64,000 bases of DNA, taken from contig JAKAME010000001.1 in assembly GCA_021813025.1 (NCBI GenBank), positions 2,201 through 66,200 of the forward strand. Direction: 5' to 3'. Shown one piece after another: positions 1-19,730 of the stretch. Under the pieces are notes generated by a model, which saw only the letters and a program-made list of their open reading frames with translations, did no database searches and was not told the DNA's origin. Every line of letters begins with the position of its first letter. Positions within the stretch are counted from its first letter, which is position 1. Source of the stretch: Candidatus Micrarchaeota archaeon. Lineage in GTDB: Archaea; Micrarchaeota; Micrarchaeia; Anstonellales; Anstonellaceae. The position numbers and the translations under genes are program-made.

Positions 1-32
1 TTGGGCATAGAAGCGGAATGGGGAGACGCCAT

Positions 33-1263
33 TTATAATTCATATAACTCTTCGATGCGGCGCACCATGTGCTGGATAGAGAACTCTTCCTTCATCCTCA
101 ATTTCCCGCTGTCGCCCAGGCGGGCGGCCAGTTTGGGGTCGTCATGCATTCGCAGCATGGCGCCCGCCAGTGCCCCCGCATCCCCGGGCGGCACCAGCAG
201 GCCGTTCTTTTCGTGCTCCACAAGCTCGGGAATGCCCCCGACCGAGGTGGAAACGACCGGAAGCCCGGCGAACATGGCCTCTATCAGGGAATAGGGAAGC
301 CCCTCGCGGATTGAGGGGCAGACGAAGAGGTCGGAGGCGCAAAGCCACTGGCGCACCGTTTCCTGCGGGCAGAAGCCTGCGAAAATCACGCGCTCGGAAA
401 CGCCCGCCTGCCGGCAGAGCTCCTCGATGCCCGCCTTGGTCTTGCCGTCCCCAAGCAGGACAAGCTTGGATGCCGGAACTGCCTTGGAGAATTGGGCGAA
501 TGCCTCCACAAGCTCCCTATGGCCCTTGACAAGCTCGAACACCGCAACGTCGCAGATGAGATAATCGCCGCCCGCCACGCCGTTTTCGCGCCTGAATTCT
601 GCAGAATCCAGCTTGCCAATCCGCGCATCCGGCCTGCGGGGGGCGGTGTAGACCACCTGTATTTTTTCGGGCGGAAGGCCGCGGAGGGAGCGCAATTCCT
701 CCCCTAGATATTTTGCATCAGGCAGGAACAGGTCTACCGAGCGCGAAGTGAGGGCGTCCAGCAGGCGGTCGAGGAGCGGGACCTGGCGCGCGAACGGGGT
801 GTTCAGCACGGAGAAAAGGATTTTTTTCGCCCCCGCAAGGCGGCCTGCCAGCGCTGCGGAATGGCAGGAGAATGCTGCCGGGTAGCCGCCGTTCATGAGA
901 TGCAGCACCGAGCCGCGCGAGCCGCGCAAATGGATGAGGAAGAGGAGGGTGTTGGGCAGGTAAAACAGGTAGCGGAAGCCGAAAAGCCCTGCGCGCATCA
1001 GCAGCTTGGCCGACTCTGGCAGGCGGGAGTGAAGAATCCGGTTGACCAGCCCGTTGGCGCTGAAGAAAAAGACGGAGCGCACCGGAATGGAGGGATGGAG
1101 GTTCTGCCGGATGCGGCCAATGAACTCGCGCTGGCCGTTGCACATGAGCAGCACGTCGTATCCGTCCGCGCGGAGCGAGTTGCACAGGTCGAAGAGGCAC
1201 TGCTCGGCCCCGCCGTGCTGCTGGCTCTCCATGAACAATATGATTTTCCTGGGGGCAGTCATG
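33..1263 (-). CDS. Glycosyltransferase family 4 (GT-B fold)
   Basis: C-terminal EGLPYSLIEAMFAGLPVVSTSVGGIPELV...NGLLV motif typical of GT4. ORF trimmed to the MTAPRKIILF start at 1263. Confidence 0.8.
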
Positions 1264-1278
1264 GGATAAACCCGCACG

Positions 1279-2085
1279 TCAGGCTTTTTTAGCTGCTGCC
1301 AGCACCCGGGCGGCCGCCTGCAGACAGAGGCTCTTGTTTTGGCCGTTGCATGCAACCACGCCTGCCTTCAGGCGCCGGGAGGCATAGGAGATTGGCCAGC
1401 CGTCCAAGCCGTATGCAGAGCCGCCGGCTTGGGACAGAATAATTTCCGGGGCGCAGAGGTCCCAGGCGCCAAGGGCTGCGAAAGTGGCGTAGACGTCCGC
1501 CTCGCCCCGCGCGATTAGCCCGAGCTTTATGCCGATGCTGCCGGTTTGCCGCACATGCCTGATGCCGGCAAGTCTGATGAAGTCCTTCTCGCTCTGGGTG
1601 AGGTGGTTTTTGCTCAAAACTGCCCGCAGCTCTGGGGGCAGACGGCGGGGGGAAACCGAGAGGCGCGCGGGCGCCGAGTTGCCGATTGCGCGATAGGCCC
1701 CCCGGCCAGCCTGCGCATACAGCATTTCATCGGACGCGGGCGCGTAGACGGCGCCAAAAGATGGGCGGCCTGAGAGCAGCAGGCCTGCCATGATGCAGAA
1801 CTGCCCGTCATGGCGGATGAAGTTGGAGGTTCCGTCCAGAGGGTCGAGCAGCCAGCATGAGGGGGGAAGGCCGGCGGGGCCCTCGGTTTCCTCAGACACT
1901 ATGGGATATTCCGACAGGCTGGCCAGCCCGTCCTGCAAAACATGGTTGGAGGCATCGTCGGCTTTCGTGACCGGGCTCTGGTCGCTTTTCTCGCCTGCCC
2001 CAAGCTCGCCGGAGCGGTAAATCTCCATCACGGCAGCGCCCGCGCTGCGCATAAGAGGCAGGATGGAGGAGGGCTGCAAATCCAT
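1279..2085 (-). CDS. Inositol monophosphatase / CysQ-family phosphatase
   Basis: IVSEETEG...WLLDPLDGTSNF metal-binding motifs of the IMPase/CysQ family. Sits inside the glycan cluster. Confidence 0.7.
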   Translation of the reverse strand: MDLQPSSILPLMRSAGAAVMEIYRSGELGAGEKSDQSPVTKADDASNHVLQDGLASLSEYPIVSEETEGPAGLPPSCWLLDPLDGTSNFIRHDGQFCIMAGLLLSGRPSFGAVYAPASDEMLYAQAGRGAYRAIGNSAPARLSVSPRRLPPELRAVLSKNHLTQSEKDFIRLAGIRHVRQTGSIGIKLGLIARGEADVYATFAALGAWDLCAPEIILSQAGGSAYGLDGWPISYASRRLKAGVVACNGQNKSLCLQAAARVLAAAKKA

Positions 2086-2183
2086 GCACAGAGGATGGCT
2101 GGATTATTTATTAAATGGGAAGCGCCAAATTGTGGACGGAGCTGGCGGCAAGCGCGAATGGACGGACTGAACGGGGGATCGGC

Positions 2184-2984
2184 ATGCGCGTAATCTACAT
2201 GGCCAAGAACAAGGCCTCATGCATCGGGGGCCTGCGCTACCTGCTGGAGAAGGGCGTGGAGGTGGCGGCAGTGGTTGCCCCGCCCAAGGACGACCCTTCG
2301 ATGGGCGGGCGAAGCCTGGCCGAATTCGCCAAAAGCAGGGGGCTCAGGCTGGCGACTGACCAGGAGCTCTACGATGCGCTGGAAGGCAAGCCCTCGCCGG
2401 TGCCGAAATCGGCTCTGGAAAATGTTGATTTTGTCATTTCTTTCCTGTTCTGGAAGCGCATCCGCGCGCCCCTCATCCGCCTGCCGAAATTTGGGTGCGT
2501 CAATTTCCATCCCGCCCCCCTGCCAGATTTCCGCGGCGTGGGAGGATACAACGTGGCCATATGCGAAGGATTCCCCCAATGGGGCGCTTCAGTCCATTTT
2601 GTGGACGAGGCTCTCGATACCGGCGACATCATCCGCGTAGAGCGCTTCCCCATAGACCAGGAGGCAGAAACCGCCCTGTCTCTGGACCGCAAGACGCAGA
2701 ATGTGCTGCTTGGCATGTTCAGGGATTTCGTTGACCATGCCGTGCGCGGGGAGAAGTTCCCGCGCATGAAGCAGGGCCCGGGCAGGTATGTGAAAAAAGA
2801 GGAATTCGAGGCTTTGCGCAAAATCGGGGCGCATGAGGACGCCGCTTCCATAGGCCGCAAAATACGCGCGTTCTGGTATCCGCCCTACCCCGGCGCCACG
2901 ATTGAGGTGGACGGGAAGGCCTACACGCTTGTTGACGAGAAGATGATGAAAAAAATCGGCGAGATGGTGCACAAGGAAGATTGA
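2184..2984 (+). CDS. Formyltransferase (Fmt/ArnA-N-like), putative sugar N-formyltransferase
   Basis: Formyl-transferase fold with an N-terminal Rossmann-like region and a catalytic segment containing FHPAPLPDFRGVGGYNVAICEG. Context is amino-sugar genes. Start taken at MRVIYMAK. Confidence 0.75.
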   Translation: MRVIYMAKNKASCIGGLRYLLEKGVEVAAVVAPPKDDPSMGGRSLAEFAKSRGLRLATDQELYDALEGKPSPVPKSALENVDFVISFLFWKRIRAPLIRLPKFGCVNFHPAPLPDFRGVGGYNVAICEGFPQWGASVHFVDEALDTGDIIRVERFPIDQEAETALSLDRKTQNVLLGMFRDFVDHAVRGEKFPRMKQGPGRYVKKEEFEALRKIGAHEDAASIGRKIRAFWYPPYPGATIEVDGKAYTLVDEKMMKKIGEMVHKED

Positions 2985-3013
2985 ACAATGACTGGACTAC
3001 GTATATAATTTTT

Positions 3014-4189
3014 TTATTCGTCCATCATCTGCTTCTGGAACAGCTTGGCGTCCAGCGGAATATCGCAAAGCACTTTCACTATGCGCTCTGACGCATGGCC
3101 GTCCCCATAGGGCGAGGCGCAGCGGGCTGTGAGGGATTTGCGGAAAGACGGCGACAGGGCTTTCTTGACAGCTGATTCTATGGCCTTCCTCTCATGCCCC
3201 ACGCTGAGCACGTTGCCCCCCTGCTCCCGGCCTGCCTGCCGGGGGCCGATGTTCACCGCAGGCGTGCAGAACGAGGGGGCCTCCAAAATGGCGCTTGAAG
3301 TGTTGCCAACCATGGCCCCGCAATGCTTCATTAAGGAAAGGTAATCGGCATATGGCACGCTTGGGCAAATCCTCACGAGCGGCAGGCGCTTCCTTCTCTG
3401 CTCGATAACCTCAATCATCTGCCTGCCGCCTGCATCTGAGTTGGGGTAAATCAGCACCGCGGGCAGGCGGAGGCTTTCAAGCACGCTGAGGGTGAGGCCC
3501 ATCTGGGAGGCGGCCGCATCAGGGCTTGTGGAGAGAGGATGCTGCAGCACAAGCAGGAAAGGCTTTTTCGGCTCAAGACCGTATTTGCGGCAGATTGAGT
3601 CTTTAGAATCAAGCTTTTGCGAGAGTATGAAATCCACGGCAGGCGAGCCTGCGCGGAAGATGCGCCACTTGGCCTCGCCCATCCTCAGCAGGCGGGCCTC
3701 GCTCTTCTTTGAAACAGGGAAATGGATTTGTGCCAGCTTGGTAATCGCCCCGCGAGCATACTCGTCCAGCCCGCCGGTGGCATTGTCGCCCCCGTGCAAA
3801 TGGGCGAGGGGGATGGACATGTAGGTGGCGGTGATGGCGGCAGTGAGCATCTCGATGCGGTCGCCCAGCACAAGCACTATGTCCGGTTTGAGGCGCCTGA
3901 ATTCGGCAGCCATTCCCTCCACGCCGCGCGAGATGGAGAGGGTGCGCTCATAGGGCGTTTCTTCCTCTTCGTTCATGTTCTGGACCTCGGCATCCGCATC
4001 GAATCCGTCCGCGCGTATCTGGGCTATGGTGTGGCCAAATCTCTTGAGCAGATGCATGCCGCATACCAGAAGCTGCAATTTCAGCCTAGGCTCTTTCCGG
4101 ATTGCACGAAGCAGGGCTGTGAGGATGCCGTAGTCGGCCCGCGTCCCGGTAATCACGCAGATTTTCCTTTGCATAGTCTGCACCTGCAT
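3014..4189 (-). CDS. UDP-N-acetylglucosamine 2-epimerase (hydrolysing), NeuC/LegG-like
   Basis: KICVITGTRADYGIL N-terminus and GDRIEML...HLHGGD motifs of the NeuC family. Confidence 0.8.
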   Translation of the reverse strand: MQVQTMQRKICVITGTRADYGILTALLRAIRKEPRLKLQLLVCGMHLLKRFGHTIAQIRADGFDADAEVQNMNEEEETPYERTLSISRGVEGMAAEFRRLKPDIVLVLGDRIEMLTAAITATYMSIPLAHLHGGDNATGGLDEYARGAITKLAQIHFPVSKKSEARLLRMGEAKWRIFRAGSPAVDFILSQKLDSKDSICRKYGLEPKKPFLLVLQHPLSTSPDAAASQMGLTLSVLESLRLPAVLIYPNSDAGGRQMIEVIEQRRKRLPLVRICPSVPYADYLSLMKHCGAMVGNTSSAILEAPSFCTPAVNIGPRQAGREQGGNVLSVGHERKAIESAVKKALSPSFRKSLTARCASPYGDGHASERIVKVLCDIPLDAKLFQKQMMDE

Positions 4190-4192
4190 TGC

Positions 4193-5308
4193 TCATGCTT
4201 CTACATCCTTCTTATAGATGGGGGCCCCGCTGGCTATTGCAGTCCTGAGCCGCCGGCCAACCAGAGAATACAATTCCTCTGATTTGAATGCCCCCTCAAG
4301 CATGGGCCGTTTTGAAACCAAATCCTCCTCGTGGATTATGCCGCCTGCCTTCAGCCCGCGGGTGGCGAACACGCTTTTTCGCACCAGCTGCCGCGTTGCC
4401 AGCTCGGAAGGCACGGGTTCTTTTTCATGCCTGCCCAGCATAGCAGCATTCTTGTCCAACAGGTGCCTTGACTCTTCTTGCGCCCGGGGCGTCTTTAACT
4501 CCAGCCTGCGTATGAGGGCGACCATCTCCCCCAGCCCGCCGGGCTCCAGCGAGGCGGCATGGTCAGGGCCCTGCATCTTTCTGTCCAGGGTGAAATGCTT
4601 CTCGATTATGCAGGCGCCCAAGCCGACTGCCAGCGCCGGGGCCTCGATTCCCCTGCTGTGGTCGGAATAACCTATGGGAACCGGAAATTCCTTTTTCAGG
4701 GTCAGGATGTTGTTCAGGTTCAGGGAGGAGGGGGGGGCGGGATATTCGCTGGTGCAGTGCAGGATGGCCAGCTGGGTGCAGCCATTGGACTGCAGGAATT
4801 CGTATGCTTTTCTGACCTCCTGCAGGCTGGACATGCCTGTGGAGAGGATGACCGGCTTTCCGCTCTTGGCAGCAGCCTTGAGCAATTGCAGGTTGGTGAT
4901 TTCACCAGACGGGATTTTGTAGGCAGCCACGCCCAGCTTTTCCAAAAGCTCGAAGCTGACGAGGTCAAATGGTGAGGAGAGGAAGAGGATGCCCTTCTTT
5001 TCGCAATAGGTTTTGAGCGTTCGGTAATCCTCTGCCTTGAGCTGCAAACTCTTGAGCATCTCCTGCTGGTTGGCATGGCGCTTGTCATTGGTTTTCTGGT
5101 ATTGGGCTTTGCCGGCCAAGGGGGAGGCGAGCTGCTCAGCCACAAAAGTCTGGAACTTGACCGCGTCTGCCCCCGCCGCATGGGCCGCATCAACAAGCTG
5201 GAGCGCAAGCTTTACGCTGCCGTTGTGGTTGACGCCCGCCTCGGCTATTATGAAGCACGGATGGCCCCGCCCTATGAGCCGGCCTGCGACTGAGAACTCC
5301 TTCTTCAT
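4193..5308 (-). CDS. Nonulosonic acid synthase (NeuB/LegI/PseI family) with C-terminal SAF domain
   Basis: CFIIAEAGVNHNGS...AVKFQTF signature. The C-terminal portion is consistent with an SAF/antifreeze-like domain. Start taken at MKKEFSV. Confidence 0.85.
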   Translation of the reverse strand: MKKEFSVAGRLIGRGHPCFIIAEAGVNHNGSVKLALQLVDAAHAAGADAVKFQTFVAEQLASPLAGKAQYQKTNDKRHANQQEMLKSLQLKAEDYRTLKTYCEKKGILFLSSPFDLVSFELLEKLGVAAYKIPSGEITNLQLLKAAAKSGKPVILSTGMSSLQEVRKAYEFLQSNGCTQLAILHCTSEYPAPPSSLNLNNILTLKKEFPVPIGYSDHSRGIEAPALAVGLGACIIEKHFTLDRKMQGPDHAASLEPGGLGEMVALIRRLELKTPRAQEESRHLLDKNAAMLGRHEKEPVPSELATRQLVRKSVFATRGLKAGGIIHEEDLVSKRPMLEGAFKSEELYSLVGRRLRTAIASGAPIYKKDVEA

Positions 5309-5368
5309 GAACCTGATTTGGCGGGCCCAAGCATTAAAACCCAAGCATTTTGGGGAGGATTGGTGCGC

Positions 5369-6100
5369 CTATTTCTTCCTGCGCTCGCGGGCCCAAAACT
5401 CGGCCCACTTAAAATCCATTTCGTCGTCAATCTCGATGCTGAACTCGCCCCCCACCACAACGTAGCGGGTCTTGTCCGTGATAAAGCGCTTGAGTTGCTC
5501 GTATGCCGCAGTCTCGATGAGGTAGAACGGGCCGCCGAAGTAGGCCTTGGGCAAATCCTGATGGCGGGCGTAATACTTGTCAGGATAGAGGGCGCGCAGA
5601 AGGCCTGTGCCGTCGTCCACTAGGGTCCAGAACGGCGGGTCCTTGGCCTCGAACACCCCGAACACGCTGTCGCAGCGGGGGTCGGTGCGCAGAATCCCGA
5701 TTGCCTTGGCCACGTCCTCCCGCCGCCTGAACGGGGTGGTGGGCATGAGCAGGGCGAAGGCGAGGGGGTATTTGCCATCCTGCCTGAGCAGGCCCAGCCA
5801 GTGTTCCACCACTTCTTTCATTAGCGAGGTGTCCTTGGCAAATTCGGCAGGCCGCTCGATGGCGCGCGCGCCAGCCTTTTTCGCAAGCTCCAGAATCTCC
5901 GCATCGTCGCTGCTCACATACACCCCGCTGAACAGCCCGCTCTTTATGGCGAAATCGATTGTGTGCAGAATCAGCGGCTTGCCGTCAAGCTCGCGCAGGT
6001 TCTTGCGCGGGATTGTCTTGCTGCCCCCGCGCGCGGGGATGAGGCAGGGCATCTTCAGGCTCTCGAAACCTGGCTTGAATGCGACGGCGCTCTTTTTCAT
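5369..6100 (-). CDS. CMP-nonulosonic acid synthetase (acylneuraminate cytidylyltransferase, NeuA/LegF family)
   Basis: IPARGGSKTIPRKN motif. Start ambiguous between 6052 and 6133. Confidence 0.8.
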   Translation of the reverse strand: MKKSAVAFKPGFESLKMPCLIPARGGSKTIPRKNLRELDGKPLILHTIDFAIKSGLFSGVYVSSDDAEILELAKKAGARAIERPAEFAKDTSLMKEVVEHWLGLLRQDGKYPLAFALLMPTTPFRRREDVAKAIGILRTDPRCDSVFGVFEAKDPPFWTLVDDGTGLLRALYPDKYYARHQDLPKAYFGGPFYLIETAAYEQLKRFITDKTRYVVVGGEFSIEIDDEMDFKWAEFWARERRKK

Positions 6101-6111
6101 ACATATCACCT

Positions 6112-7551
6112 TCATAACAATCTGCTGAACCACTGCAGCATGCGCATGCCCACCTCGCCGCTTTTTTCAGGGTGGAACTGGGTGCCGAAAACATTGCCTT
6201 TGCGTATGACAGAGCAGAATTCCTGGCCCCCGTGCACCGAGCTGGCCAGCACCGAGCCCCCGTCCTCGGGCGCCGCGTAGAATGAGTGCACGAAATAGGC
6301 TTCCGAGCCGTCGGGCACGCTCTCAAGCGGAGTTCCATCCCATTGCGCCCCCTTCGGCTTTGAAATCTGGTTCCAGCCGATTTGGGGCACGCGGTAGCCC
6401 GGCTCCCTGACCTCGGGCACAGGCTTGAACGGCAGCACGCGGCCCGGTATTATGCCAAGCCCCCCATGGCGGCCGAATTCGAGACTTTCGGAGAGAAGCA
6501 GCTGCATGCCGAGGCAGATGCCGAAAAACGGCCGGCCGCTCTTCACATAGCCGCGGATGGGGGCGATGAGCCCGCGCTTTTCCAGCTCGCTCATGCCGAA
6601 CCCGAACGCCCCGTCGCCGGGAAGCACGAGCAGCTGGGCCTGCTCTATCTCGGCCGCGCTCGTCACAAGCTTGACAGGATTGCCAAGGTTGGAGAAGGCG
6701 GTGCGCACGCTCTTGAGGTTGCCCGCGCCGTAGTCGATGATGGAGACCTCTTTTGGATTCGGGGAGGGGTTGGCCTGCACGCGGGCAAGCATTGCCTTCC
6801 TTGTCGCGATGCCGGCGCGCGCCAGCTCCTCCTTCACTCCCCCTATGGTGGCGCGGTTGTAGTGCAGTATGGAGGCAAAGCAGGCGCCGTCGCATCCGGT
6901 TTTGCGCAAGCAGTCGGCCACGTCGGCCCCGTCCCGCGCCCCGCCGCAGGCGAGGACAGGGACTGAAACCGAGGATGCGATGCGGCCCAGAAGCTCGTGG
7001 TCATAGCCGGACATCGTCCCTTCCCTGTCCACCGATGTTACCAGAAGCTCGCCGGCGCCGAAGCCCGCCAGCTTTTTCGCCCATTCCAGCGCGTCAAGCC
7101 CCGTGCGCTCGCGGCCGTTGTCAACGTAGCATTCCCATTTCCCTTCATTGAATTTCGCCTCTATCGAGCCGACTATGCACTGCGAGCCGAAGATTTCTGC
7201 AGCCTTGGTAATAAGTTCCGGGTTTCTGGTGGCTGCGGTGTTGATGGCCACCTTGTCCGCCCCCGCGCGCAGGAGCGTGCGCACGTCCTCCACGCTGCGT
7301 ATGCCCCCGCCAACGGTGACAGGTATGTAGATGCCGTTGGACGCCATGTTCTCCACTATTTCGGTGAGGTTGTTGCGCTCATAGAGGCTGGCCACCGTGT
7401 CTATGTAGAGGATTTCGTCAGCTCCCTGCTCGTAATAGCGCTTGGCCAGAACGGCCGGGCTGCCTATGACGCGCAGGCCCTCGAGCTGGATGCCCTTGAC
7501 GACGTTGGGGCCCTTGATGTCCAGGCGGGGTATGATTCGCACCCGTTTCAT
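6112..7551 (-). CDS. Fused imidazole-glycerol-phosphate-synthase-like protein (HisF cyclase domain N-terminal + HisH glutaminase domain C-terminal), glycan-modifying amidotransferase paralogue
   Basis: N-terminal half [10 protein letters not shown]...VTVGGGIR is HisF-like. C-terminal half [11 protein letters not shown]...[11 protein letters not shown]...FVHSF...QFHPEKS is a HisH-like class-I glutamine amidotransferase. Lies between NeuA and the aminotransferase. Confidence 0.8.
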
Positions 7552-7702
7552 AGCACGACCTTTTAGGATAGAACAAGCCTCATGCGGCCAGCTTCATTTC
7601 AAGCGTTCTGTGGAGACCGACCTTTATAACGTTTAATCGCCGGCGATGGGCGGCTTTTTATTCATTCTATTCGAAATAAAAGCAGGATTTTGGCGTGATT
7701 GC

Positions 7703-8839
7703 ATGCCTTTTCGCATACCCCTGCACAAGCACTTTCATGACGAGGCGGACAGCGAAGCGGTCCTGTCGGTGATCCGCCGCGGCATGCACTGGGCCAACGG
7801 GCCGGAAATAGAGCAGCTTGAGAAGGAGCTGGCCGCGTATTCTGGCCTGCCGCACGCGCTTGCGTTCAGCAACGGCACCTGCGCCCTGCACGCCCTGATG
7901 CTGGCAAGCGGCATTGGGCCGGGCGACGAGGTCATCGTCCCCTCATTCACCTTCATAGCCACCGCCAACGCCGTCCTTTTCACTGGAGCCAAGCCGGTGT
8001 TTGCTGACATCGAGCCAAATACGCTGGCGCTGGACGCGCAGGACGTGCGCAGGCGCATCACCAGGAAAACAAAGGCCATCATGCCGATTCATTATGCAGG
8101 CACGCCCGCCTCGCAAATAAACGGGCTTGCGGCCCTTGCAAAGGAGAAGAATCTTCTGCTTCTGGAGGACGCTGCCGAGTCCATTGGCGCGAAGCTGGGG
8201 GGGAAGATGACAGGCGCCTTCGGAGATGCGGGCGTCTACAGCTTCTGCGCCAACAAGGTGATTACCTCGGGGGAGGGCGGGGCGGTGGTCACCCGCTCTC
8301 GCGAGATGCATGAGAAGCTCAAGCTTTTGCGCTCGCACGGGCGGGCCGAGACTGAGAACTACTTCGAGTCCAGCCAGCACATGGATTACGTCGCTCTGGG
8401 ATACAATTTCCGCATGCCCTCCATGGTGGCCGCGCTGGCCCTCTCGCAGCTGCGCAAGATAGACAAAATAATTTCCCTGCGCCGCTCGGTAGCCCAGCAT
8501 TACGGCCGCCTGCTCGCGCCCCTGAGCGGCGTCACGCTGCCCGCCGACGGCGGCGAACTCTTCAGCGTCTACCAGCTCTACACCATCCGCCTCAAGGACA
8601 GGGCCGCGCGCGACGGGCTGAAGAAGCACCTGGAGGGCGCTGGCATCATGTGCAAGGTGTATTTCGAGCCCGTGCACCTCACCCATTTTTACAAGAACGT
8701 GCTCAAATACTCGGAGCGGCTGCCGGTCACTGAGGAGACCGCCTCGCGCGTTCTCTCGCTGCCGATTTATGCTGACATGAAAAAGGAGGAAATCGAGCTG
8801 GTGTGCGGGGAAATCAAGCGCTATTTCCAGGGGGGATGA
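7703..8839 (+). CDS. DegT/DnrJ/EryC1-family PLP sugar aminotransferase (PseC/LegC-like)
   Basis: Family-typical N-terminus and a PLP-binding lysine region FCANKVITSGEGG. Start moved to MPFRIPL. Confidence 0.85.
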   Translation: MPFRIPLHKHFHDEADSEAVLSVIRRGMHWANGPEIEQLEKELAAYSGLPHALAFSNGTCALHALMLASGIGPGDEVIVPSFTFIATANAVLFTGAKPVFADIEPNTLALDAQDVRRRITRKTKAIMPIHYAGTPASQINGLAALAKEKNLLLLEDAAESIGAKLGGKMTGAFGDAGVYSFCANKVITSGEGGAVVTRSREMHEKLKLLRSHGRAETENYFESSQHMDYVALGYNFRMPSMVAALALSQLRKIDKIISLRRSVAQHYGRLLAPLSGVTLPADGGELFSVYQLYTIRLKDRAARDGLKKHLEGAGIMCKVYFEPVHLTHFYKNVLKYSERLPVTEETASRVLSLPIYADMKKEEIELVCGEIKRYFQGG

Positions 8840-8840
8840 C

Positions 8841-9881
8841 ATGGCACAGAACCTGAAAACATTCTTCGACAAAAAAACCATCCTGGTCACCGGCGGGGCC
8901 GGCTCAATCGGCAGCGAGCTGGTGCGCCACCTGGTCAAGAACTACTCGCCGCGCGCGGTGAGGGTGTTTGATTCCAACGAGACCGCGCTTTTCGAGCTTG
9001 AGCAGGAGTTCGGGGTGGGCAACAGCCCCATCCGCCTGTTCGTGGGCGACGTGCGGGACCGCGACCGCCTGCGCATGGCCATGGACGGAGCCGACCTCGT
9101 ATTCCACGCGGCCGCCCTCAAGCACGTCTATCTCAACGAGTACACGCCCGCCGAGGCCGTCAAGACCAACGTGCTGGGCACCCAGAACGTGATTGACATG
9201 GCGCTTGAGAAAAACGTCGAGCGTGTGATAAACATCTCCACAGACAAGGCAGTGGACCCCACCAGCGTGATGGGCACCACCAAGCTGCTTGCCGAGAAGC
9301 TCACCACCGCGGCCAACGGCCAGCGCGGCTCGCGGCGCACGGTGTTCGCATCCGTGCGCTTCGGCAACGTGCTTGCCTCGCGAGGCTCGGTGCTCCCGCT
9401 CTTCGTCAGCCAGATAAGGAAGGGAGGCCCGGTAACGGTGACAGACCCCAAGATGACGCGCTTCTTCATGACCATTCCGGCTGCGGTGTCGCTCATACTT
9501 GAGGCGACCGCGAGGGCGTCGGGGGGCGAGCTGTTCATACTTCGCATGCCATCGATGAAAATCGGCGACCTGGCCGAGGCGGTGGTGGAGAAATACGCCC
9601 CCCGCCTCGGGCGCAAATCATCTGACATCAAAATCAAGGTGATTGGCGCGCGCAAGGGGGAGAAGATGCACGAATCCCTGCTCACCGAGCATGAGCGCCT
9701 GTTCGCCCGCATGAGCGGCGGGCTGATTTGCATCCATCCCGAAATCCTTTCCAGGCACGGCACCGTGCCGGCGCCGGAGGGGCGGCCGGCGGACTGGGTG
9801 GAGGACGCGCTGGTCAGCAGCAGGACTAACAACCTCTCCAAGGCTGAAGTGCGCAAGATGCTGGACGAAGGCGAGGGCTAG
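8841..9881 (+). CDS. UDP-sugar 4,6-dehydratase, CapD/PseB/LegB-like (short form)
   Basis: ILVTGGAGSIGSEL Rossmann motif and MGTTKLLAEKL catalytic YxxxK-like region of the polysaccharide-biosynthesis CapD family. Confidence 0.8.
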   Translation: MAQNLKTFFDKKTILVTGGAGSIGSELVRHLVKNYSPRAVRVFDSNETALFELEQEFGVGNSPIRLFVGDVRDRDRLRMAMDGADLVFHAAALKHVYLNEYTPAEAVKTNVLGTQNVIDMALEKNVERVINISTDKAVDPTSVMGTTKLLAEKLTTAANGQRGSRRTVFASVRFGNVLASRGSVLPLFVSQIRKGGPVTVTDPKMTRFFMTIPAAVSLILEATARASGGELFILRMPSMKIGDLAEAVVEKYAPRLGRKSSDIKIKVIGARKGEKMHESLLTEHERLFARMSGGLICIHPEILSRHGTVPAPEGRPADWVEDALVSSRTNNLSKAEVRKMLDEGEG

Positions 9882-9974
9882 CGCCGGCGGGCGGGCGGCA
9901 GATTTTTGCGCGGCTTGCAATTAAAACTTCCCCTTATCCGCCTGGCATAAATAACTGCGCCCCGCAATTGGACC

Positions 9975-11240
9975 ATGGCCATCTCCATCGAAACCGCCGC
10001 CTTGGCGAATTTCTTCGTCGCGGTGCTGATGCTGCTCTTTTCGTCCCACTTCTTCGGATACCTCTTGGGGCGCTTTTCAATTCCGCGCGTGGTGGGAGAG
10101 ATTTTCGGGGGGCTGGTGCTCGGACCCACCCTGCTGGGCCACTTCTTTCCCCAAACCTATGCCGCCATCTTCCTAGACCAAGGGTTGCTGCTGGCCGGCC
10201 TGTATTGGATAGGGCTTGTGCTGCTGATGTTCATCTCGGGCTTTGAGCTCGCGCCCGGAGTCGAGAGTAAAGACAGGCGCACCATAGCCGCCCTTGTGCT
10301 CGGCACCACCACCATCCCCCTCCTGTGCGGCTGGGCCTTGACCTCGTTCTTTGACCTGGGGGCCTGGATGGGCCCGGCACAGAACGAGCTGGCGCTCAAG
10401 CTCGTCGTCACAGTGGCGCTCGCAGTCACGTCGATTCCGGTCATCTCCAAGATTTTCCTGGATTTGGGCGTCATCCAAACGCGCTTTGCCAAAATCGTGC
10501 TGGCGACCGCCACTATCCATGACATCATCCTATGGGTCTTCGTTTCGGTGGCCACCGGCCTGGTCGCCGCGCAGGCCCTGTCGCTGGCCGGCATTGCATC
10601 CTACGTGCTGGTGACCGTCCTGTTCTTCATGGCGGCCCTGCTCCTCATGCCCCGGATTTTCAAACTCGTTTCGGAGAGGAAACCCCACCTGATTCCCGAC
10701 AGCTATGAGTCCGCGTTCATGGTCCTCATCCTGCTGCTGTTCACGGCCGTAGCTGGCGGGCTGCAGGTCAATCTGGTGTTCGGCGCGCTGCTGGCCGGCG
10801 TGGTGGTCAATTCCATCCAAAGCCGGCGGTTTGAGGACGCCAAGCGCCACGTGAAGGAGTTCTCGATGGCGTTCTTTGTTCCAATCTATTTCGGGGTGGT
10901 CGGCCTGAAGCTCGACCTCTTGCGCCATCTCGACCCGGTCTCCGTCCTGACCTTCATCGCGTTTGCGATGGCGGTGCAGACCGCCGCCGTGCTGCTGACC
11001 ACGCGCCTGCTCAGGTATGACTGGCGTTCCGGCTTCAACTTGGCCATGGCACTTAACAACCGGGGCGGACCCTGCATCGTGCTGGCGACGCTGGCGCTGG
11101 ATGTCGGCATCATCAGCGGGGCCTTTTTCACCGCCTTGGTGCTGCTGGCCATCTTCACCTCCATGACCGCCGGGCTGTGGCTGAAATACGTGCTGGAGAG
11201 AAAGTGGCCCCTGCTGCAAGGCGAGCAGGCAGATGGATGA
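9975..11240 (+). CDS. Cation:proton antiporter (CPA2/Kef-NapA type), polytopic membrane protein
   Basis: Multiple TM helices. N-terminal FGYLLGRFSIPRVVGEIFGGLVLGP is typical of Na+/H+ exchanger family proteins. Confidence 0.75.
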   Translation: MAISIETAALANFFVAVLMLLFSSHFFGYLLGRFSIPRVVGEIFGGLVLGPTLLGHFFPQTYAAIFLDQGLLLAGLYWIGLVLLMFISGFELAPGVESKDRRTIAALVLGTTTIPLLCGWALTSFFDLGAWMGPAQNELALKLVVTVALAVTSIPVISKIFLDLGVIQTRFAKIVLATATIHDIILWVFVSVATGLVAAQALSLAGIASYVLVTVLFFMAALLLMPRIFKLVSERKPHLIPDSYESAFMVLILLLFTAVAGGLQVNLVFGALLAGVVVNSIQSRRFEDAKRHVKEFSMAFFVPIYFGVVGLKLDLLRHLDPVSVLTFIAFAMAVQTAAVLLTTRLLRYDWRSGFNLAMALNNRGGPCIVLATLALDVGIISGAFFTALVLLAIFTSMTAGLWLKYVLERKWPLLQGEQADG

Positions 11241-11273
11241 GCGGATGGCCTGCCGCCGCCCGCTTGGACCGGC

Positions 11274-12269
11274 TCAAACCTTGACCATGAGCCCGCTGCG
11301 GGCCGATGACTTTTTGGCAGCATCCGCTATTTGCACGTCAGACAGGCCGTCGGCGAGGGGGCAGGCGGATTTCTCCTTGCCGTCCAGCACCCGGATGAAA
11401 TGCTCCATCTCGCGCACATACATCCGGTTGCGGTCTTCATGGAGGTCCTGCTCCTGCGCGGCGACCAGGCCTGTGCGAACAACGGCTTTCCCGCTTATGA
11501 AATCGTACGCTGCCGCCCCTTCGGTTCCAATCGCCTTCACCCAGCGGGCCGGCAGGCGGCTGAGATAATCCAGGTGGACGGCCGAGCGGGCGCCGCCCGC
11601 GTGCATGAGCACCACGTCAGCCGTGTCCTCTGTTTCGATTCCCAAGCCCCCGCAGGTGCCGCAGAGGCAGGAGACGCCCGAAACCCGGCCTGCGAGGGCG
11701 CGAACATAGTCGATTTCGTGTATGCCGTCCAGCAGTATGCCGCCGCCAGTGGCCTTTTTGGCCGCGTAATTCTTCAGATAGTCGGTGCCCGGCCGCCATT
11801 CAGGCAGATAGGAGCTGTTGTGGGCCAGCAGCTGGACGATGCTGCCCAGGCGGCCTGAGCGCACGATGCGCTCGAACTCAATGAAGCCTGCATTGAAGCG
11901 CATGTTGCAGCCCACGAGAGTCTTGAGCCTTCTTTTGGCGGCTGCCTTCAGCACCGGCCCAGCGCCGGCCGAGGACATGAACGCGGGCTTTTCCAGAAAG
12001 AAATCCAAATCATGCGACAGGCACAGCTTCACGTGCTGCATGTGCAGGTGATTCGGCGAGCAGATGAGGGCTGCGTCATAGTTGCCGGCTTTCTCGAATG
12101 CCTTCTCGATGCTTGTGAAGGCCTCTGCCCCGCTTGCCTGCGATATTTGCCTCGCCTTTTCCGGGGAGGGGTTGAACACGCCCCCAAGCGTCTCGCCCAG
12201 CTGCACGAGGTTGCGCGCGTGCCGCTGGCCGATGGAGCCGGCGCCGATGAGAAGAAAGGAATAGGTCAT
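11274..12269 (-). CDS. Gfo/Idh/MocA-family NAD(P)-dependent oxidoreductase
   Basis: LLIGAGSIGQRHARNL N-terminal dinucleotide-binding motif and LCSPNHLHMQH...EKP region. Confidence 0.75.
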   Translation of the reverse strand: MTYSFLLIGAGSIGQRHARNLVQLGETLGGVFNPSPEKARQISQASGAEAFTSIEKAFEKAGNYDAALICSPNHLHMQHVKLCLSHDLDFFLEKPAFMSSAGAGPVLKAAAKRRLKTLVGCNMRFNAGFIEFERIVRSGRLGSIVQLLAHNSSYLPEWRPGTDYLKNYAAKKATGGGILLDGIHEIDYVRALAGRVSGVSCLCGTCGGLGIETEDTADVVLMHAGGARSAVHLDYLSRLPARWVKAIGTEGAAAYDFISGKAVVRTGLVAAQEQDLHEDRNRMYVREMEHFIRVLDGKEKSACPLADGLSDVQIADAAKKSSARSGLMVKV

Positions 12270-12418: not shown

Positions 12419-13372
12419 ATGAAAATAGTCATCACCGGCGGGGCGGGCTTCATAGGCTCTCACCTGGCGGAGCGGCTCTGCCCACGGCACGAGGTCGTGG
12501 TCATAGACAACCTCTCAAGCGGCAGCATGGAGAATCTGGCCGGGCTGAAAGGAAGAATCAGGTTCGCTCGGGCGGACATCACCTGCCCCGGCGCGCTGGC
12601 GCCGCATTTCTTGGGGGCTGACGCCGTCCTGCACCTTGCCGCCCTGACTTCGGTGGGCGAGAGCGTGAAAAACCCGCAGCCCACGCTCAAGACAAACGTG
12701 GAGGGCACGCGCAACGTGCTGGAGCAGGCGCGCAAATCCGATGTCGGGCGGGTCGTGCTGGCAAGCTCGGCGAGCGTGTACGGGGACGCCAGCAGGCAGC
12801 CTGTGGCCGAGGACGACCCCCTCGCCCCCATGAGCCCCTATGCCGAGTCAAAGATGGTCAACGAGCTGGACGCGCGGGAATATTTCGAGCGCTACGGGCT
12901 GAAAACCATCTCCCTGCGCTATTTCAACGTCTACGGCCCGCGCCAGAGGCCTGACTCGGACTATGCGCCCGTGATTCCCAAGTTCATTTCCTCCATGACA
13001 AGCGGTCGCCGGCCGGTGATTTACGGCGACGGGCGGCAGAGCCGGGATTTCATTTTCGTCAGGGACGTGGCAGGAGCGAACGAGAAGGCGCTGGCGGCCA
13101 GGAAAGGGTTTGGGGAGGCTTTCAACATCGCGTCAGGAAAAAGCGTCAGCATACTCGAGCTCTACCGCGCCATCGCCCGCGAGATTGGATTTTCCGCCCC
13201 GCCGCGCTTCGGGCCCGCGCGGAAGGGCGACATACGCAAAAGCGAGGCCAGCATCGGCAAGGCCAAGGCGGTGCTGGGCTTCTCGCCCTCCACCGGCCTC
13301 AAGGACGGCCTGAAGGAAACTGCCCGGTGGTTCGCCGGCAGGACGGATGCCGAAAAGAGTGGTTTGGAATGA
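12419..13372 (+). CDS. NAD-dependent sugar epimerase/dehydratase (SDR extended family)
   Basis: MKIVITGGAGFIGSHL and YAESK catalytic motif. Confidence 0.85.
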   Translation: MKIVITGGAGFIGSHLAERLCPRHEVVVIDNLSSGSMENLAGLKGRIRFARADITCPGALAPHFLGADAVLHLAALTSVGESVKNPQPTLKTNVEGTRNVLEQARKSDVGRVVLASSASVYGDASRQPVAEDDPLAPMSPYAESKMVNELDAREYFERYGLKTISLRYFNVYGPRQRPDSDYAPVIPKFISSMTSGRRPVIYGDGRQSRDFIFVRDVAGANEKALAARKGFGEAFNIASGKSVSILELYRAIAREIGFSAPPRFGPARKGDIRKSEASIGKAKAVLGFSPSTGLKDGLKETARWFAGRTDAEKSGLE

Positions 13373-14379
13373 AAGTCCTCTACTTCGTCCACACGTTCTA
13401 CCCGGAGCTCAACGGCATCTCTATCCACCTGCATTACCTGACGAAAAATCTCGGAGCCAACGTCGAGACGGTCGTCATGCCGGGCAGGGGTTTCGCCATT
13501 CCGGGCTTTTCATCAATGCGCCTCCCGCTCGCCGAGTTTTTCAGCGCGCTGGGCGCGCCCTGCGACCTGGTGCATGTGCACGGCTACAGCTTTTTCAGCG
13601 GCGCGGGCGCTATTCTGGCCCGCCTGCGCGGCAAGCCGCTGGTGTGGACAGTGCATGGAGTGCCAAAATTCAAGGACAGGCGCAAGTGGCTGCTGGCCCT
13701 CTACGATTTTCTCTTCCTTGGCTGGCTAAAGTCGGCGGACGCGATAATATCGGTCAGCCATGACGCGAAAGTGAAGGAGTGGGAGGGGCAGGGCAGGCCG
13801 ATAAATTATCTGCCAAACGGGGTTGACACCGACTTGTTCAGGCCTGCCGGCTCCTACCGACAGGCGAAATACGCGGCCTACTTCGGCCGCCTTGACAAGG
13901 ACAAGGGAGTGGAGGAGATGATGGGGATACGCTCGCTCCCGGTTCTGCTGGTCGGGCCTGACGAGGGCATGCTTGACAAGCTCAGGGCCATGGGCGGGCT
14001 GCAATACCGCTCGGCCCCGCACGAGGAAATGCCCTCCCTCTACAGCCAGTGCCGCTACGTGCTGCTGCCCTCTCGCTATGAGGGCTACCCGCTCACCATG
14101 CTTGAGGCGCTGGCGTGCGAGCGGCCTTTTGTCGCACGGCCTGTAGGCGAGATTCCGCAGGTGATGAAGGAGCTGCTCGGCGGGGACAAATGGCGGAAAT
14201 ACATGATAGGGGATGACGAGCCTCTGGAAGCGCCGCTCGCCCGCCTTGAGAAGGAGAATCTGGAGCCAGAGCTGAAGGCTGCGCGCAGAAAAATAGAGCA
14301 AACCCTATCATGGAGCGCGGCTGCGGCCCGGACTTGTGCCATTTACGAGCAGGTGCTGGGGAAAAGAAGGCAGAAATAG
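13369..14379 (+). CDS. Glycosyltransferase family 4
   Basis: GT-B N-terminal domain. C-terminal SRYEGYPLTMLEALACERPFV motif. Start ATGA-coupled to the upstream epimerase. Confidence 0.75.
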   Translation: MKVLYFVHTFYPELNGISIHLHYLTKNLGANVETVVMPGRGFAIPGFSSMRLPLAEFFSALGAPCDLVHVHGYSFFSGAGAILARLRGKPLVWTVHGVPKFKDRRKWLLALYDFLFLGWLKSADAIISVSHDAKVKEWEGQGRPINYLPNGVDTDLFRPAGSYRQAKYAAYFGRLDKDKGVEEMMGIRSLPVLLVGPDEGMLDKLRAMGGLQYRSAPHEEMPSLYSQCRYVLLPSRYEGYPLTMLEALACERPFVARPVGEIPQVMKELLGGDKWRKYMIGDDEPLEAPLARLEKENLEPELKAARRKIEQTLSWSAAAARTCAIYEQVLGKRRQK

Positions 14380-16111: not shown

Positions 16112-16660
16112 ATGAAGCTCCGCCTCTCTCCCACCCTCTCCTACCTCATAGGCCTGTGGAAGCACTGCCGCACGCGCGAGGGCATCGGCATAGTGGGAAA
16201 CGAAGCCATGCGCACGGCCTTCCTCTCCAAAGTGATTGAGGCCGGGCTCACTCCGGCCGACAAGGTTGTGGTGGAGGACAATGCAACCTATTTCCACCAC
16301 ACCGCCTACCGCGCGTTTTTTGAGGAAGTGCTGAAAGAGGAAACCGAGCGCTTCTGCCATGCGAATGATTTTTCCGCCGCATTCCTGGCCGGCCTCTATG
16401 ACGCCAACGGCGGGACGGAGAAGGGCAAGCTGTATTTGGGCAGATGGGACCAGCATGACGAGATGGTGCTGCTTAGGCTCAACTTCATGGCTGCAAAGGC
16501 TGGCGGGAGGCTCTGGGTGGGGCCTGCGGACGTGTTTTTGAAATTCACAAAGGAGTGGAGACAGGTGGACAGGCCGAGTGTGAGGGTGGAGAGGACGGAC
16601 AGGCGGGGCGAGAGGGGGCGAGGATTGGATAAAGAAGAAGGCTCTAAATATCCAGAATAG
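16112..16660 (+). CDS. Degenerate LAGLIDADG homing-endonuclease-like protein
   Basis: Motif LAGLYDANGG followed by KGKLYLG resembles a LAGLIDADG block with the second acidic residue replaced by N. A weaker first block SYLIGLW lies about 85 aa upstream. Confidence 0.4.
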   Translation: MKLRLSPTLSYLIGLWKHCRTREGIGIVGNEAMRTAFLSKVIEAGLTPADKVVVEDNATYFHHTAYRAFFEEVLKEETERFCHANDFSAAFLAGLYDANGGTEKGKLYLGRWDQHDEMVLLRLNFMAAKAGGRLWVGPADVFLKFTKEWRQVDRPSVRVERTDRRGERGRGLDKEEGSKYPE

Positions 16661-16741: not shown

Positions 16742-17404
16742 GTGAGATTCATGACTTCCCCATGGACGCTGATGCAAAAACCACAGATGCCACCGCGAAA
16801 TCCACAAATGGCAATGGCGCAACGACCGAATGAATTGGTTCTTAGACAAAGTCGAGTTTTAACAAGACAAAATCCATTTTTAACAACCTTGGAAGGGCAC
16901 ATGAAACAAGAGGCAGGCCTGAAATTGGACTTAATACGTCAAAAGCTCTTACGTGGCGAATTTCATGATTACTTAGAAGTGCAAGCAACGACTCTGAGAT
17001 GGATAGAAGATTTAGATATGAACTTTAGAGGGATGGCGGTAGGACACGTAGCCGCCGACATTGCCAACAAATTTGCGCCTGACAGAACACAAATAATTGG
17101 TGACGAACTGAGGGTCATTGTAAAGAGAAACGCCCGCGGCTATACGCTGGATGAGGTTGCAAGGGAGTCTGCAAAACTTGGCAGGCAGCTTAAGCAGATA
17201 AAAATTGAAAAGGGCGCCAGTGTCAAATACGGGCTGTATTATGTTTTAGCCAAAAAGATTGACCAGCAAATGAGAAAGCGCACGAAAGAAAACATCTCCA
17301 GAGCACTAACAGGCATTAAGGAACTCGACAGCCTCATCGAGGATATTGAAAAGAAAATTGACGGCCTGTACATGCTTCCGAAAAGCGAGGGTTTGATTAA
17401 ATAA
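16742..17404 (+). CDS. Hypothetical protein in AT-rich islet
   Basis: ORF with a clear GC drop relative to its flanks. No recognisable family. Followed by a hairpin plus T-tract. Confidence 0.5.
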   Translation: MRFMTSPWTLMQKPQMPPRNPQMAMAQRPNELVLRQSRVLTRQNPFLTTLEGHMKQEAGLKLDLIRQKLLRGEFHDYLEVQATTLRWIEDLDMNFRGMAVGHVAADIANKFAPDRTQIIGDELRVIVKRNARGYTLDEVARESAKLGRQLKQIKIEKGASVKYGLYYVLAKKIDQQMRKRTKENISRALTGIKELDSLIEDIEKKIDGLYMLPKSEGLIK

Positions 17405-19566: not shown

Positions 19567-19638
19567 TGGACTCGGAGGGATTTGAACCCTCGACCTTTCC
19601 GTTGCAAACGGAACGCGCTACCGCTGCGCCACGAGCCC
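19567..19638 (-). tRNA. tRNA-Ala (anticodon UGC)
   Basis: Reverse complement folds as a cloverleaf GGGCTCG...anticodon loop TTTGCAA...GGTTCAAATCC, with the G3:U70 alanine identity pair. Confidence 0.9.
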
Positions 19639-19730
19639 GCATTAAAATTGGCGCATTTGGGGCTAATAAACAATATGGACGGAAATCCGCCCCCCTCGCC
19701 CATAAAAAGAACTGGGCCTCAGAAAAAGGC

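Follow-up and report, generated by a model that had tools for sequence, protein, structure and literature searches.

Pathway genes of the surface-glycan locus

The 64-kb stretch of archaeal DNA analyzed in this study (the whole of which is hereafter called the window) contains a surface-glycan island at approximately 1–16 kb, which was annotated from a listing of open reading frames (ORFs) and from profile hidden Markov model (HMM) searches with Pfam and NCBIfam models. The genes of this island suggest that it probably encodes a UDP-N-acetylglucosamine (UDP-GlcNAc)-based, legionaminic-type pathway for a 5,7-diamino nonulosonic acid (NulO), in which an N-formyl group takes the place of an acetyl group and to which an amidine module is added. 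The genes assigned to this pathway are as follows:

2184–2984, plus strand: sugar N-formyltransferase (FT), 266 aa; PF00551 71.8 bits, cut-off 26.1
3014–4189, minus strand: NeuC/LegG-type hydrolysing UDP-N-acetylhexosamine (UDP-HexNAc) 2-epimerase, 391 aa; TIGR03568 395.8, cut-off 235.9; PF02350 253.7
4193–5308, minus strand: NeuB/LegI-type nonulosonic acid synthase with SAF domain, 371 aa; TIGR03569 402.7, cut-off 399.65
5369–6115, minus strand: CMP-nonulosonate synthetase (CMP-transferase), CTP_transf_3, 248 aa; PF02348 70.1 bits, cut-off 22.6
6112–7551, minus strand: HisF-HisH fusion, 479 aa; PF00977 213.5 bits, and PF00117
7552–7702, no strand: divergent intergenic region of 151 bp with A/T-rich, TATA-like boxes in the printed sequence; putative promoter
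7703–8839, plus strand: DegT-family sugar C4 aminotransferase, 378 aa; PF01041 376 bits
8841–9881, plus strand: short soluble UDP-GlcNAc 4,6-dehydratase, Polysacc_synt_2, 346 aa; PF02719 349.7 bits

The HisF-HisH, CMP-transferase, NeuB-type and NeuC-type genes form a tightly packed minus-strand operon, in which the start of the CMP-transferase gene overlaps the stop of the HisF-HisH gene by 4 bases. The DegT and dehydratase genes diverge from this operon across the 151-bp gap, while the FT gene runs towards the NeuC-type gene and away from a CysQ-like gene and a GT4 glycosyltransferase gene (33–1262). An exact-protein look-up revealed that the same locus is carried by several public metagenome contigs. 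Contig DAIEPU010000013.1 (GCA_027348265.1), which has zero mismatches against window positions 1–11262, provided approximately 10 kb of sequence beyond the left edge (the left extension). The genes named in a preliminary description of this DNA all proved to be real at their coordinates, the FT start included, with strong HMM support. That description had presented them as contiguous; they are indeed clustered, but the HisF-HisH fusion separates the CMP-transferase gene from the DegT gene. Its gene list was correct as named, but had omitted the HisF-HisH fusion, the CysQ-like phosphatase and a Na+/H+ antiporter.

The NeuC-type epimerase and the NeuB-type synthase passed their family models, whereas the synthase failed the PseI model (265.8, cut-off 340.25). 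By tblastn, the synthase shared 42–46% identity with neuB-annotated plasmid genes, among them genes of Haladaptatus and Halorussus, and 35–36% with genes annotated pseI. Neither TIGR03568 nor TIGR03569 distinguishes enzymes of neuraminic acid (Neu) synthesis from those of legionaminic acid (Leg) synthesis. The CMP-transferase, which belongs to the CTP_transf_3 family, scored 136.8 against the PseF model TIGR03584 (cut-off 205.7), and the aminotransferase scored 305.7 against PseC (cut-off 423.5) and 267.4 against the LegC-family model (cut-off 420). The best model match of the dehydratase was to PseB (TIGR03589; 306.6, below the cut-off of 407.75), and it scored only 72.8 bits against the GDP-type LegB model TIGR04180. 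Neither a PtmE-like nucleotidyltransferase nor a deacetylase was found in the locus, the window or the left flank; given a UDP-type dehydratase and neither of these enzymes, the C2 N-acetyl group would be expected to come ready-made from UDP-GlcNAc. No GNAT protein (PseH type) was found among the scanned ORFs, for which no PseH-specific model was run, and the only GT-B-type proteins were the NeuC-type epimerase and the two GT4 glycosyltransferases, no PseG-specific model having been run. The route predicted from these genes is of the Leg/Neu type, fed by UDP-GlcNAc, and not the pseudaminic acid (Pse) route. A legionaminic-like route had been proposed in the preliminary description, and this holds insofar as NeuC and NeuB pass their models and PseI fails, while the product may or may not have the D-glycero-D-galacto configuration.

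The formyltransferase and the acyltransferase slot

The FT possesses a Formyl_trans_N domain in which the catalytic Asn-His-Asp residues are present. In alignment A1, which comprises the window FT and 17 homologues, residues N107, H109 and D145 are invariant and lie inside the motif NFHPAPLPDFRG. All 17 homologues begin at the equivalent of MRVIYM, in agreement with a start at position 2184. A longer ORF from position 2115 was rejected because the homologues start at MRVIYM and the ATG at 2115 lies inside an A/T-rich box of the intergenic region. An AlphaFold2 model of the FT had a predicted local distance difference test (pLDDT) score of 88.8, and its modelled fold and its size fit the small sugar N-formyltransferases. 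The closest solved relative by sequence was WbkC of Brucella melitensis (PDB 5vyr-5vyu; E 2e-17), and WbkC also gave the top Foldseek matches of the model, with template modelling (TM) scores of 0.76–0.82. WbkC resembles the window FT in size (~260 aa), and it formylates the C4 amine of a 4-amino-4,6-dideoxyhexose. The two proteins differ in that they share only ~25% identity and that the substrate of WbkC is GDP-mannose-derived (GDP-perosamine, 4-amino-4,6-dideoxymannose), without a NulO context. PseJ is distant from the window FT (E 1e-7, 34.8 bits).

The FT family is large, well conserved (50–57% identity) and mostly bacterial, with members in Thermoleophilaceae/Solirubrobacterales, Omnitrophota, Acidobacteriota, Cyanobacteriota, Parcubacteria and Woesearchaeota; bacteria and DPANN archaea supply the nearest relatives of the window FT. 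Family neighbourhoods were surveyed within 10 kb of the FT gene at the best 80 genomic loci from an FT-alignment scan of genome contigs. A Polysacc_synt_2 dehydratase was present at 45 of these 80 loci and a DegT aminotransferase at 35, mostly without NeuB, which occurred at seven loci and was accompanied by NeuC and NeuA at six of the seven. Neither the genome of the window itself nor any Marsarchaeota or haloarchaeal locus was among the best 80, and a tblastn search of plasmids revealed no haloarchaeal relative of the window FT. The FT gene has a GC content of 0.593 and a third-position GC content (GC3) of 0.745, like its neighbours; a recent horizontal gain of the gene was considered, and this composition gives no signal of one.

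Since the dehydratase and DegT are the common partners of the FT, the shared denominator of these loci is the C4 amine product. The best inference is that the FT formylates the C4 amine, which becomes N7, of a UDP-4-amino-4,6-dideoxy-HexNAc. This amine is also the only evident acceptor, because the window has no deacetylase, no route to a nucleoside diphosphate-glucosamine and no acetyltransferase. The 7-N-formyl product anticipated by the preliminary description accordingly keeps its place as the best inference, backed by the dehydratase/DegT partners and the kinship to WbkC, but that description had left the amidine module out of the product.

To cover the possible acetyltransferases of the LbH fold, phmmer was run with three LbH queries on all six-frame ORFs of the window and the left extension, down to a length of 50 aa. 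This search revealed no LbH protein in the cluster or the left extension, and a single LbH ORF in the whole window, at 43484–43951, which is 33 kb away. This ORF ends a LysX/Y/Z/J/K operon and is best described as a gamma-carbonic anhydrase/PaaY/CaiE-like protein (106 bits), with a NeuD score of 79 bits (cut-off 160.8). It was rejected as a pathway member on the basis of its distance, its lysine-operon context and these family scores. No GNAT protein was found among the long window ORFs scanned with Pfam, and the 10-kb left flank contained no acetyltransferase. In particular, no 4-N-acetyltransferase (PglD/LegH, LbH fold) was present in the cluster, the scanned window ORFs or the 10-kb left flank. 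The intergenic gaps within 1–16 kb are all at most 151 bp; therefore, no gene is hidden between the locus genes. Thus, the earlier statement that the cluster has no LbH N-acetyltransferase holds, and a canonical acetyltransferase just outside the window, which had been named as a finding that would count against it, was not seen within 10 kb on the left.

Syntenic NulO operons in other genomes revealed what occupies the corresponding position:

L019, Woesearchaeota: NeuB-NeuC-FT-DegT-dehydratase on one strand, with overlapping stop and start codons
L012, Parcubacteria: NeuB-NeuC-FT-(CBS)DegT on the same strand
L094, Woesearchaeota: NeuB-NeuC-FT-DegT-dehydratase on the same strand; the FT is of a different family (29% identity)
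L093 and L095: the same slot is filled by an LbH protein of 133–137 aa with NeuD-like matches
Haladaptatus plasmid: the gene that immediately follows neuC is annotated as a NeuD/PglB/VioB acetyltransferase

FTs and LbH acetyltransferases are thus alternative occupants of one operon slot, and this shared slot is the strongest support for an FT in place of an acetyltransferase. The preliminary description had proposed just such a replacement, and slot occupancy by an FT in L019, L012 and L094 versus an LbH protein in L093 and L095 supports it. As a separate observation, the NeuC-type gene of L019 (2820–4005) is split into two 149-aa ORFs within an otherwise intact operon, which may reflect a frameshift, a pseudogene or an assembly error.

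A characterized archaeal case is the cluster HrrPV6_1046-1053 of Halorubrum sp. PV6, which is associated with 5-N-formyl-Leg on the N-glycans of the S-layer and of VP4 of the virus HRPV-1 (PMC6137143). Like the window, PV6 has archaeal LegB-, LegC-, LegG(NeuC)-, LegI(NeuB)- and LegF-like genes, an FT gene, HrrPV6_1050, that adjoins the NeuC-type gene, and a formylated NulO. Unlike the window, it has a NeuD-type acetyltransferase beside the FT, a candidate LegH, which lies ~30 genes from the cluster (PMC6137143), and the formyl group on N5; the window locus has no NeuD/LbH partner for its FT. Conversely, the window adds a HisF-HisH/WbuX amidine module and belongs to a Marsarchaeota-like host and not to a haloarchaeon; the FTs of the two clusters were compared by description only. 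The adjacent FT and NeuD genes of PV6 are mirrored by a 493-aa fusion in the Omnitrophota metagenome-assembled genome (MAG) contig JAQTSV010000001.1 (L016, 10001–11482), in which an FT of the same family as that of the window (52% identity) is joined to PglD_N and Hexapep domains and the gene sits between those for NeuC and NeuB. L016 is Leg-like and of the GDP type; it encodes a CBS nucleotidyltransferase and a GDP_Man_Dehyd-type dehydratase along with FT, NeuC, NeuB, NeuA, HisF, HisH and WbuX. Together, the L016 fusion and the adjacent PV6 genes indicate that formylation and acetylation can coexist and that the formylated nitrogen may differ between systems. Fusions of the L016 type may mark 5-N-formyl/7-N-acetyl systems.

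Two further systems combine an FT with a 5,7-diamino NulO pathway. In the standard Pse pathway, PseH carries out the N7 step with acetyl. The FT PseJ (PDB 6ci2/6ci4; cited in PMC11040635) supplies the N7-formyl group in the Pse5Ac7Fo pathway. As predicted for the window, PseJ thus stands in for the acetyltransferase in acylating N7 of a 5,7-diamino NulO; it differs in serving a pseudaminic route (PseB/C/G/I), whereas the window is of NeuC/NeuB type and its FT is nearer to WbkC. For Candidatus Kuenenia stuttgartiensis, a Leg-like cluster that combines an FT with a deacetylase has been reported; CMP-NulOs bearing formyl were also detected, from which it follows that formylation precedes glycan assembly (bioRxiv 10.64898/2026.04.20.719630). 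Kuenenia resembles the window in having a Leg-type cluster with an FT, but it is bacterial, has a deacetylase, which the window does not, and carries a free amine together with the formyl group.

Predicted amidine module, proposed pathway and alternatives

The HisF-HisH fusion scored below the cut-offs of the WbuZ (260.6, cut-off 299.7), HisF (265.9, cut-off 294.55) and AglZ (184.3, cut-off 310) models, and scored 182.4 against the HisH model TIGR01855 (cut-off 105.4). Its glutaminase triad (C346, H460 and E462) and D11 are invariant, and nearly all members of the fusion family have Glu at the position of HisF D130. Both GGG/GGA phosphate-binding loops are also kept in this family, whose members are ~480 aa long, share 50–63% identity and come from Woesearchaeota, Nanoarchaeota, Promethearchaeota and Omnitrophota. 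In all three of the fusion-family loci sampled, the fusion lies inside a NulO operon, with a WbuX-family amidotransferase of 406–411 aa (TIGR03573, 364–375 bits) immediately after it, while in L016 HisF and HisH are encoded separately and a WbuX gene adjoins NeuA. The WbuX protein of the window contig is 427 aa long, with a TIGR03573 score of 318.8 (cut-off 203.2), an SGGKDS PP-loop and no Pfam match. Its gene is located at L005 17820–19103, which is 6.6–7.8 kb left of window position 1 and ~13 kb from the HisF-HisH fusion.

A role of the fusion as a housekeeping imidazole glycerol phosphate synthase is unlikely, as evidenced by the score below the HisF cut-off, the D130 to Glu change, and the relatives that lie beside WbuX in NulO operons. 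In eukaryotic His7 the order is HisH then HisF, the opposite of the order in the window fusion (HisF then HisH). At four other loci, the neighbouring WbuX speaks for a WbuZ role of the HisF half, and the fusion is predicted to be the glutamine-dependent, ammonia-delivering half of a WbuX/Y/Z-type acetamidino module. WbuX/WbuY/WbuZ, AglX/Y/Z, PtmG and PseA resemble the window in pairing a PP-loop amidotransferase with a HisH/HisF-like ammonia supply, in association with a NulO operon. The window is unlike these systems in its fused HisF-HisH, the D130 to Glu change, the WbuX gene ~13 kb away and the formyl group predicted as the other N-acyl substituent. Among the WbuX-family proteins, PseA and PtmG are the amidine synthases for Pse5Ac7Am (PMC11040635) and Leg5Am7Ac (PMC5378307), respectively, and with the ptmG gene product of Campylobacter the amidination that yields Leg5Am7Ac takes place at the CMP-sugar stage (PMC5378307). 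Since both HisF-HisH and WbuX are present, the best prediction is a 5-acetamidino-7-formamido NulO and not a 5-acetamido-7-formamido NulO. The calculated residue masses are 302.11 Da for the acetyl/formyl (Ac/Fo) form, 301.13 Da for the acetamidino/formyl (Am/Fo) form and 316.13 Da for the diacetyl form. The preliminary description had suggested looking for a 316-Da-class NulO with a formyl (+28) substituent, which should be read as 302.11 Da (Ac/Fo) or 301.13 Da (Am/Fo).

In the pathway that we propose, the dehydratase (8841–9881) would convert UDP-GlcNAc to a 4-keto-6-deoxy sugar, which the DegT protein (7703–8839) would aminate at C4. The FT (2184–2984) would then add a formyl group, presumably from N10-formyl-tetrahydrofolate, to the C4 amine and in this way replace a PglD/LegH acetyltransferase. 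Removal of UDP and C2 epimerisation would follow by the NeuC-type enzyme (3014–4189), and the NeuB-type synthase (4193–5308) would condense the resulting hexose with phosphoenolpyruvate to a 5-acetamido-7-formamido-3,5,7,9-tetradeoxy-nonulosonate, to be activated by the CMP-transferase (5369–6115). Most likely, HisF-HisH and WbuX would turn the 5-N-acetyl substituent into acetamidino and so give a Leg5Am7Fo-type sugar, probably at the CMP-sugar stage by analogy with Campylobacter. The analysis directly shows the family of each enzyme, the lack of an acetyltransferase in and near the cluster, the FT in the acyltransferase slot of syntenic operons and the repeated link of HisF-HisH and WbuX to NulO operons. 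From the genes and their context we infer the substrate and site of formylation, where and when amidination occurs, the cofactor, the stereochemistry and the glycan attachment. Still more tentatively, a 5-acetamidino-7-formamido NulO (~301 Da, zwitterionic and net-neutral) might cap sulfated surface glycans of this archaeon of a thermoacidophile lineage.

Several points weigh against the formylated, legionaminic-type pathway. The aminotransferase and the CMP-transferase fall below every equivalog cut-off, and the dehydratase is closer to inverting/5,6-ene-forming enzymes than to the retaining PglF, so that the predicted product may lack the Leg configuration. The L016 fusion indicates that an FT need not be an alternative to acetylation, an acetyltransferase may be present, unlinked, elsewhere in the genome, and the sole archaeal case defined by NMR is a 5-N-formyl sugar (PMC6137143). 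The WbuX gene is not adjacent to HisF-HisH, which makes their link weaker, and WbuX could serve another N-acetyl sugar. All the proposed steps are read from genes and context, and the supply of N10-formyl-tetrahydrofolate, the presumed cofactor, is likewise an assumption for this archaeon.

The first alternative concerns stereochemistry. An inverting, PseB-like dehydratase acting ahead of a NeuC-type 2-epimerase would give an 8-epi-legionaminic-type (8eLeg) or other non-Leg 5,7-diamino NulO. In terms of hexose configurations, inversion at C5 followed by a NeuC-type 2-epimerisation leads to the L-gulo precursor of 8eLeg. The dehydratase matched Pen (262.7 bits), PseB (228.9), CapE (225.5) and FnlA (218.8) in the PDB above PglF (176.9), in line with PseB TIGR03589 as its best model. 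Bit scores do not define the stereochemical outcome, however; short PseB-like dehydratases occur in the NeuC-containing clusters of many lineages, and PV6, with a LegB amplicon of 1,025 bp, makes authentic Leg. We regard a non-Leg isomer as unlikely.

The placement of the formyl group on N5, as in PV6, is in our view quite unlikely. The FT would here act on a free C2 amine, on an intermediate of the NDP-GlcN type or one that has lost its N-acetyl group, and N7 would either stay free or receive its acetyl from an unlinked enzyme. Precedent for this arrangement comes, in addition to PV6 itself, from the NulOs of Kuenenia, in which one amine is formylated and the other is free, and from the joint occurrence of formylation and acetylation in the L016 FT-PglD fusion and the adjacent PV6 FT/NeuD genes. 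Yet no deacetylase, PtmE-like nucleotidyltransferase, GDP-type LegB or acetyltransferase was found in the locus, the window or the left flank, the dominant context of the FT family is a dehydratase and DegT on UDP-GlcNAc-type substrates, and the closest solved relative, WbkC, formylates a C4 amine.

It is also conceivable, if quite improbable, that the locus makes two products: a UDP-2-acetamido-4-formamido-2,4,6-trideoxyhexose donor (N-formyl-bacillosamine-like) and, separately through NeuC, NeuB and NeuA, Neu5Ac or another NulO. Most FT-family loci, those of Thermoleophilaceae/Solirubrobacterales, have the dehydratase and DegT without NeuB, and the formylated hexose itself is the end product there; moreover, TIGR03568 and TIGR03569 cannot tell Neu from Leg enzymes. 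What speaks for a single product is that NeuB, NeuC, the acyltransferase or FT, DegT and the dehydratase make up one same-strand operon in several unrelated lineages; furthermore, the two window operons diverge around a single 151-bp intergenic region, and PV6 demonstrates that such a gene set leads to a Leg derivative in archaea. A last variant, with the formamide as the target of WbuX and a formamidino group as the result, found no support.

The formylated legionaminic-type pathway with its amidine module is less novel than the preliminary description implied, given the precedents of N-formyl-Leg with a cluster FT in PV6, of PseJ and of Kuenenia. Every element has a published precedent, and the advance is for this reason incremental and not conceptual. 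What is new is the host lineage, a WbkC-like FT family without an acetyltransferase in the locus, the fused HisF-HisH and the predicted Am/Fo combination. The Leg5Am7Fo-type substitution pattern was not found described in the literature searched, nor did our literature search find a paper joining Marsarchaeota with nonulosonic acid. The Am/Fo combination is predicted to recur in the Woesearchaeota locus L094 and in the Omnitrophota locus L016. If the prediction is true, the set of FT, HisF/HisH, WbuX and NeuB/C/A, which recurs in Woesearchaeota and Omnitrophota, would represent a widespread, uncharacterised NulO chemotype of uncultivated lineages.

NulOs cap cell-surface glycans, and their N-acyl groups set charge, virus recognition and antigenicity. 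Few archaeal NulO pathways are as yet backed by structural and genetic evidence, Halorubrum PV6 being one case, and the locus extends the formylated Leg-type pathway to a Marsarchaeota-like archaeon. Synteny presents the WbkC-like FT and the small LbH acetyltransferases as interchangeable cassettes across distant lineages, and links the fused HisF-HisH/WbuX amidine module to a formylated Leg-type pathway. The predictions are testable as UDP-sugar intermediates shifted by +28 Da and glycan residues of 302 or 301 Da, and the enzymes are candidates for the chemoenzymatic synthesis of N-formyl and N-amidino NulOs.

Flanking genes, sulfation module and host

The remaining genes of the locus surround the pathway genes on both sides:

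33–1262, minus strand: GT4 glycosyltransferase, 409 aa; PF00534 137.7 bits, and PF13692; identical gene call in public contigs
1279–2085, minus strand: CysQ-like 3'(2'),5'-bisphosphate nucleotidase (PAP phosphatase); PF00459 145 bits; TIGR01331 168, cut-off 228.8
9975–11240, directly downstream of the dehydratase gene: CPA2-type Na+/H+ antiporter
11274–12269, minus strand: Gfo/Idh/MocA oxidoreductase; PF01408, PF22725; UDP-GlcNAc 3-dehydrogenase-like at 87 bits, below cut-off
12419–13372, plus strand: nucleotide-sugar epimerase/dehydratase of the short-chain dehydrogenase/reductase type; PF01370 212.8 bits; GalE-like at 184 bits, below cut-off
13369–14379, plus strand: GT4 glycosyltransferase, 336 aa; PF13439, PF13692
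14394–16070, minus strand: Wzx/MurJ-type lipid-linked oligosaccharide flippase; PF01943, PF13440, PF03023

Pfam confirmed the GT4 glycosyltransferases, Wzx-like flippase, epimerase and Gfo/Idh/MocA oxidoreductase that had been described earlier. Every contig carrying the locus has the antiporter gene (9975–11240) at this place within it. The two small ORFs after the flippase gene (16112–16660 and 16901–17404), at the right border of the locus, had no family match. The second of these has a strikingly low GC content (0.44, with a GC3 of 0.49, versus ~0.6 and ~0.75 in its neighbours).

The left extension encodes two methyltransferases, a Sulfotransfer_1 protein, an adenylylsulfate (APS) kinase, a pyruvate-kinase/ATP-sulfurylase fusion, a GFO oxidoreductase, the 427-aa WbuX-family protein, another methyltransferase and a glycerophosphotransferase. 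A complete sulfation module thereby flanks the NulO genes: the CysQ-like gene (1279–2085) lies in the window, and the Sulfotransfer_1, APS kinase and ATP-sulfurylase fusion genes lie at L005 12827–16768, which is 1.6–5.5 kb left of the window start. The fusion is unusual, with a pyruvate-kinase-like domain and an ATP sulfurylase in one protein of 797 aa. The position of this module beside the NulO genes suggests a sulfated glycan. The N-glycan of PV6 reportedly contains sulphated glucuronic acid. The PV6 region lists a sulfatase (PMC6137143), and a sulfation module adjoins the cluster described here.

The eIF6 and PyrB proteins of the window fall into clusters of at least 90% identity with proteins of a Candidatus Marsarchaeota MAG. 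This result agrees with the earlier description of the host as an archaeon and, on the strength of these protein matches, the host is a Marsarchaeota-like archaeon and not a haloarchaeon.

Past ~17.5 kb, every ORF with a family match is either a housekeeping gene or a TnpB-type transposase gene, and several long ORFs have no match. The housekeeping genes to the right of the locus include those for PyrBI, eIF6, L31e, FtsY, phenylalanyl-tRNA synthetase, transketolase and a LysW-type lysine/arginine pathway. A tRNA-Ala(TGC) gene at 19567–19638 (minus strand) is overlapped by the mechanically called ORF 19566–21113 (DHH/RecJ-like), and the true start of the latter gene is therefore further downstream. 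Two TnpB/Cas12f-like (IS200/IS605 OrfB) genes were observed, at 24416–25681 (minus strand) and 49379–50512 (plus strand). The LysW-type lysine/arginine biosynthesis region spans 43484–57045, with a TnpB gene inserted mid-region. It contains genes for an M20 peptidase, a class-III aminotransferase, an amino-acid kinase, a semialdehyde dehydrogenase and two LysX-like ATP-grasp proteins, as well as for ornithine transcarbamylase, homoisocitrate dehydrogenase, homoaconitase subunits and homocitrate synthase. Further to the right, a 214-aa ORF at 57412–58056 possesses only a Tubulin/FtsZ GTPase domain and overlaps the ORF 58038–58700, which has no family match; the region 57412–58700 may represent a split, frameshifted or divergent FtsZ/CetZ-like gene.

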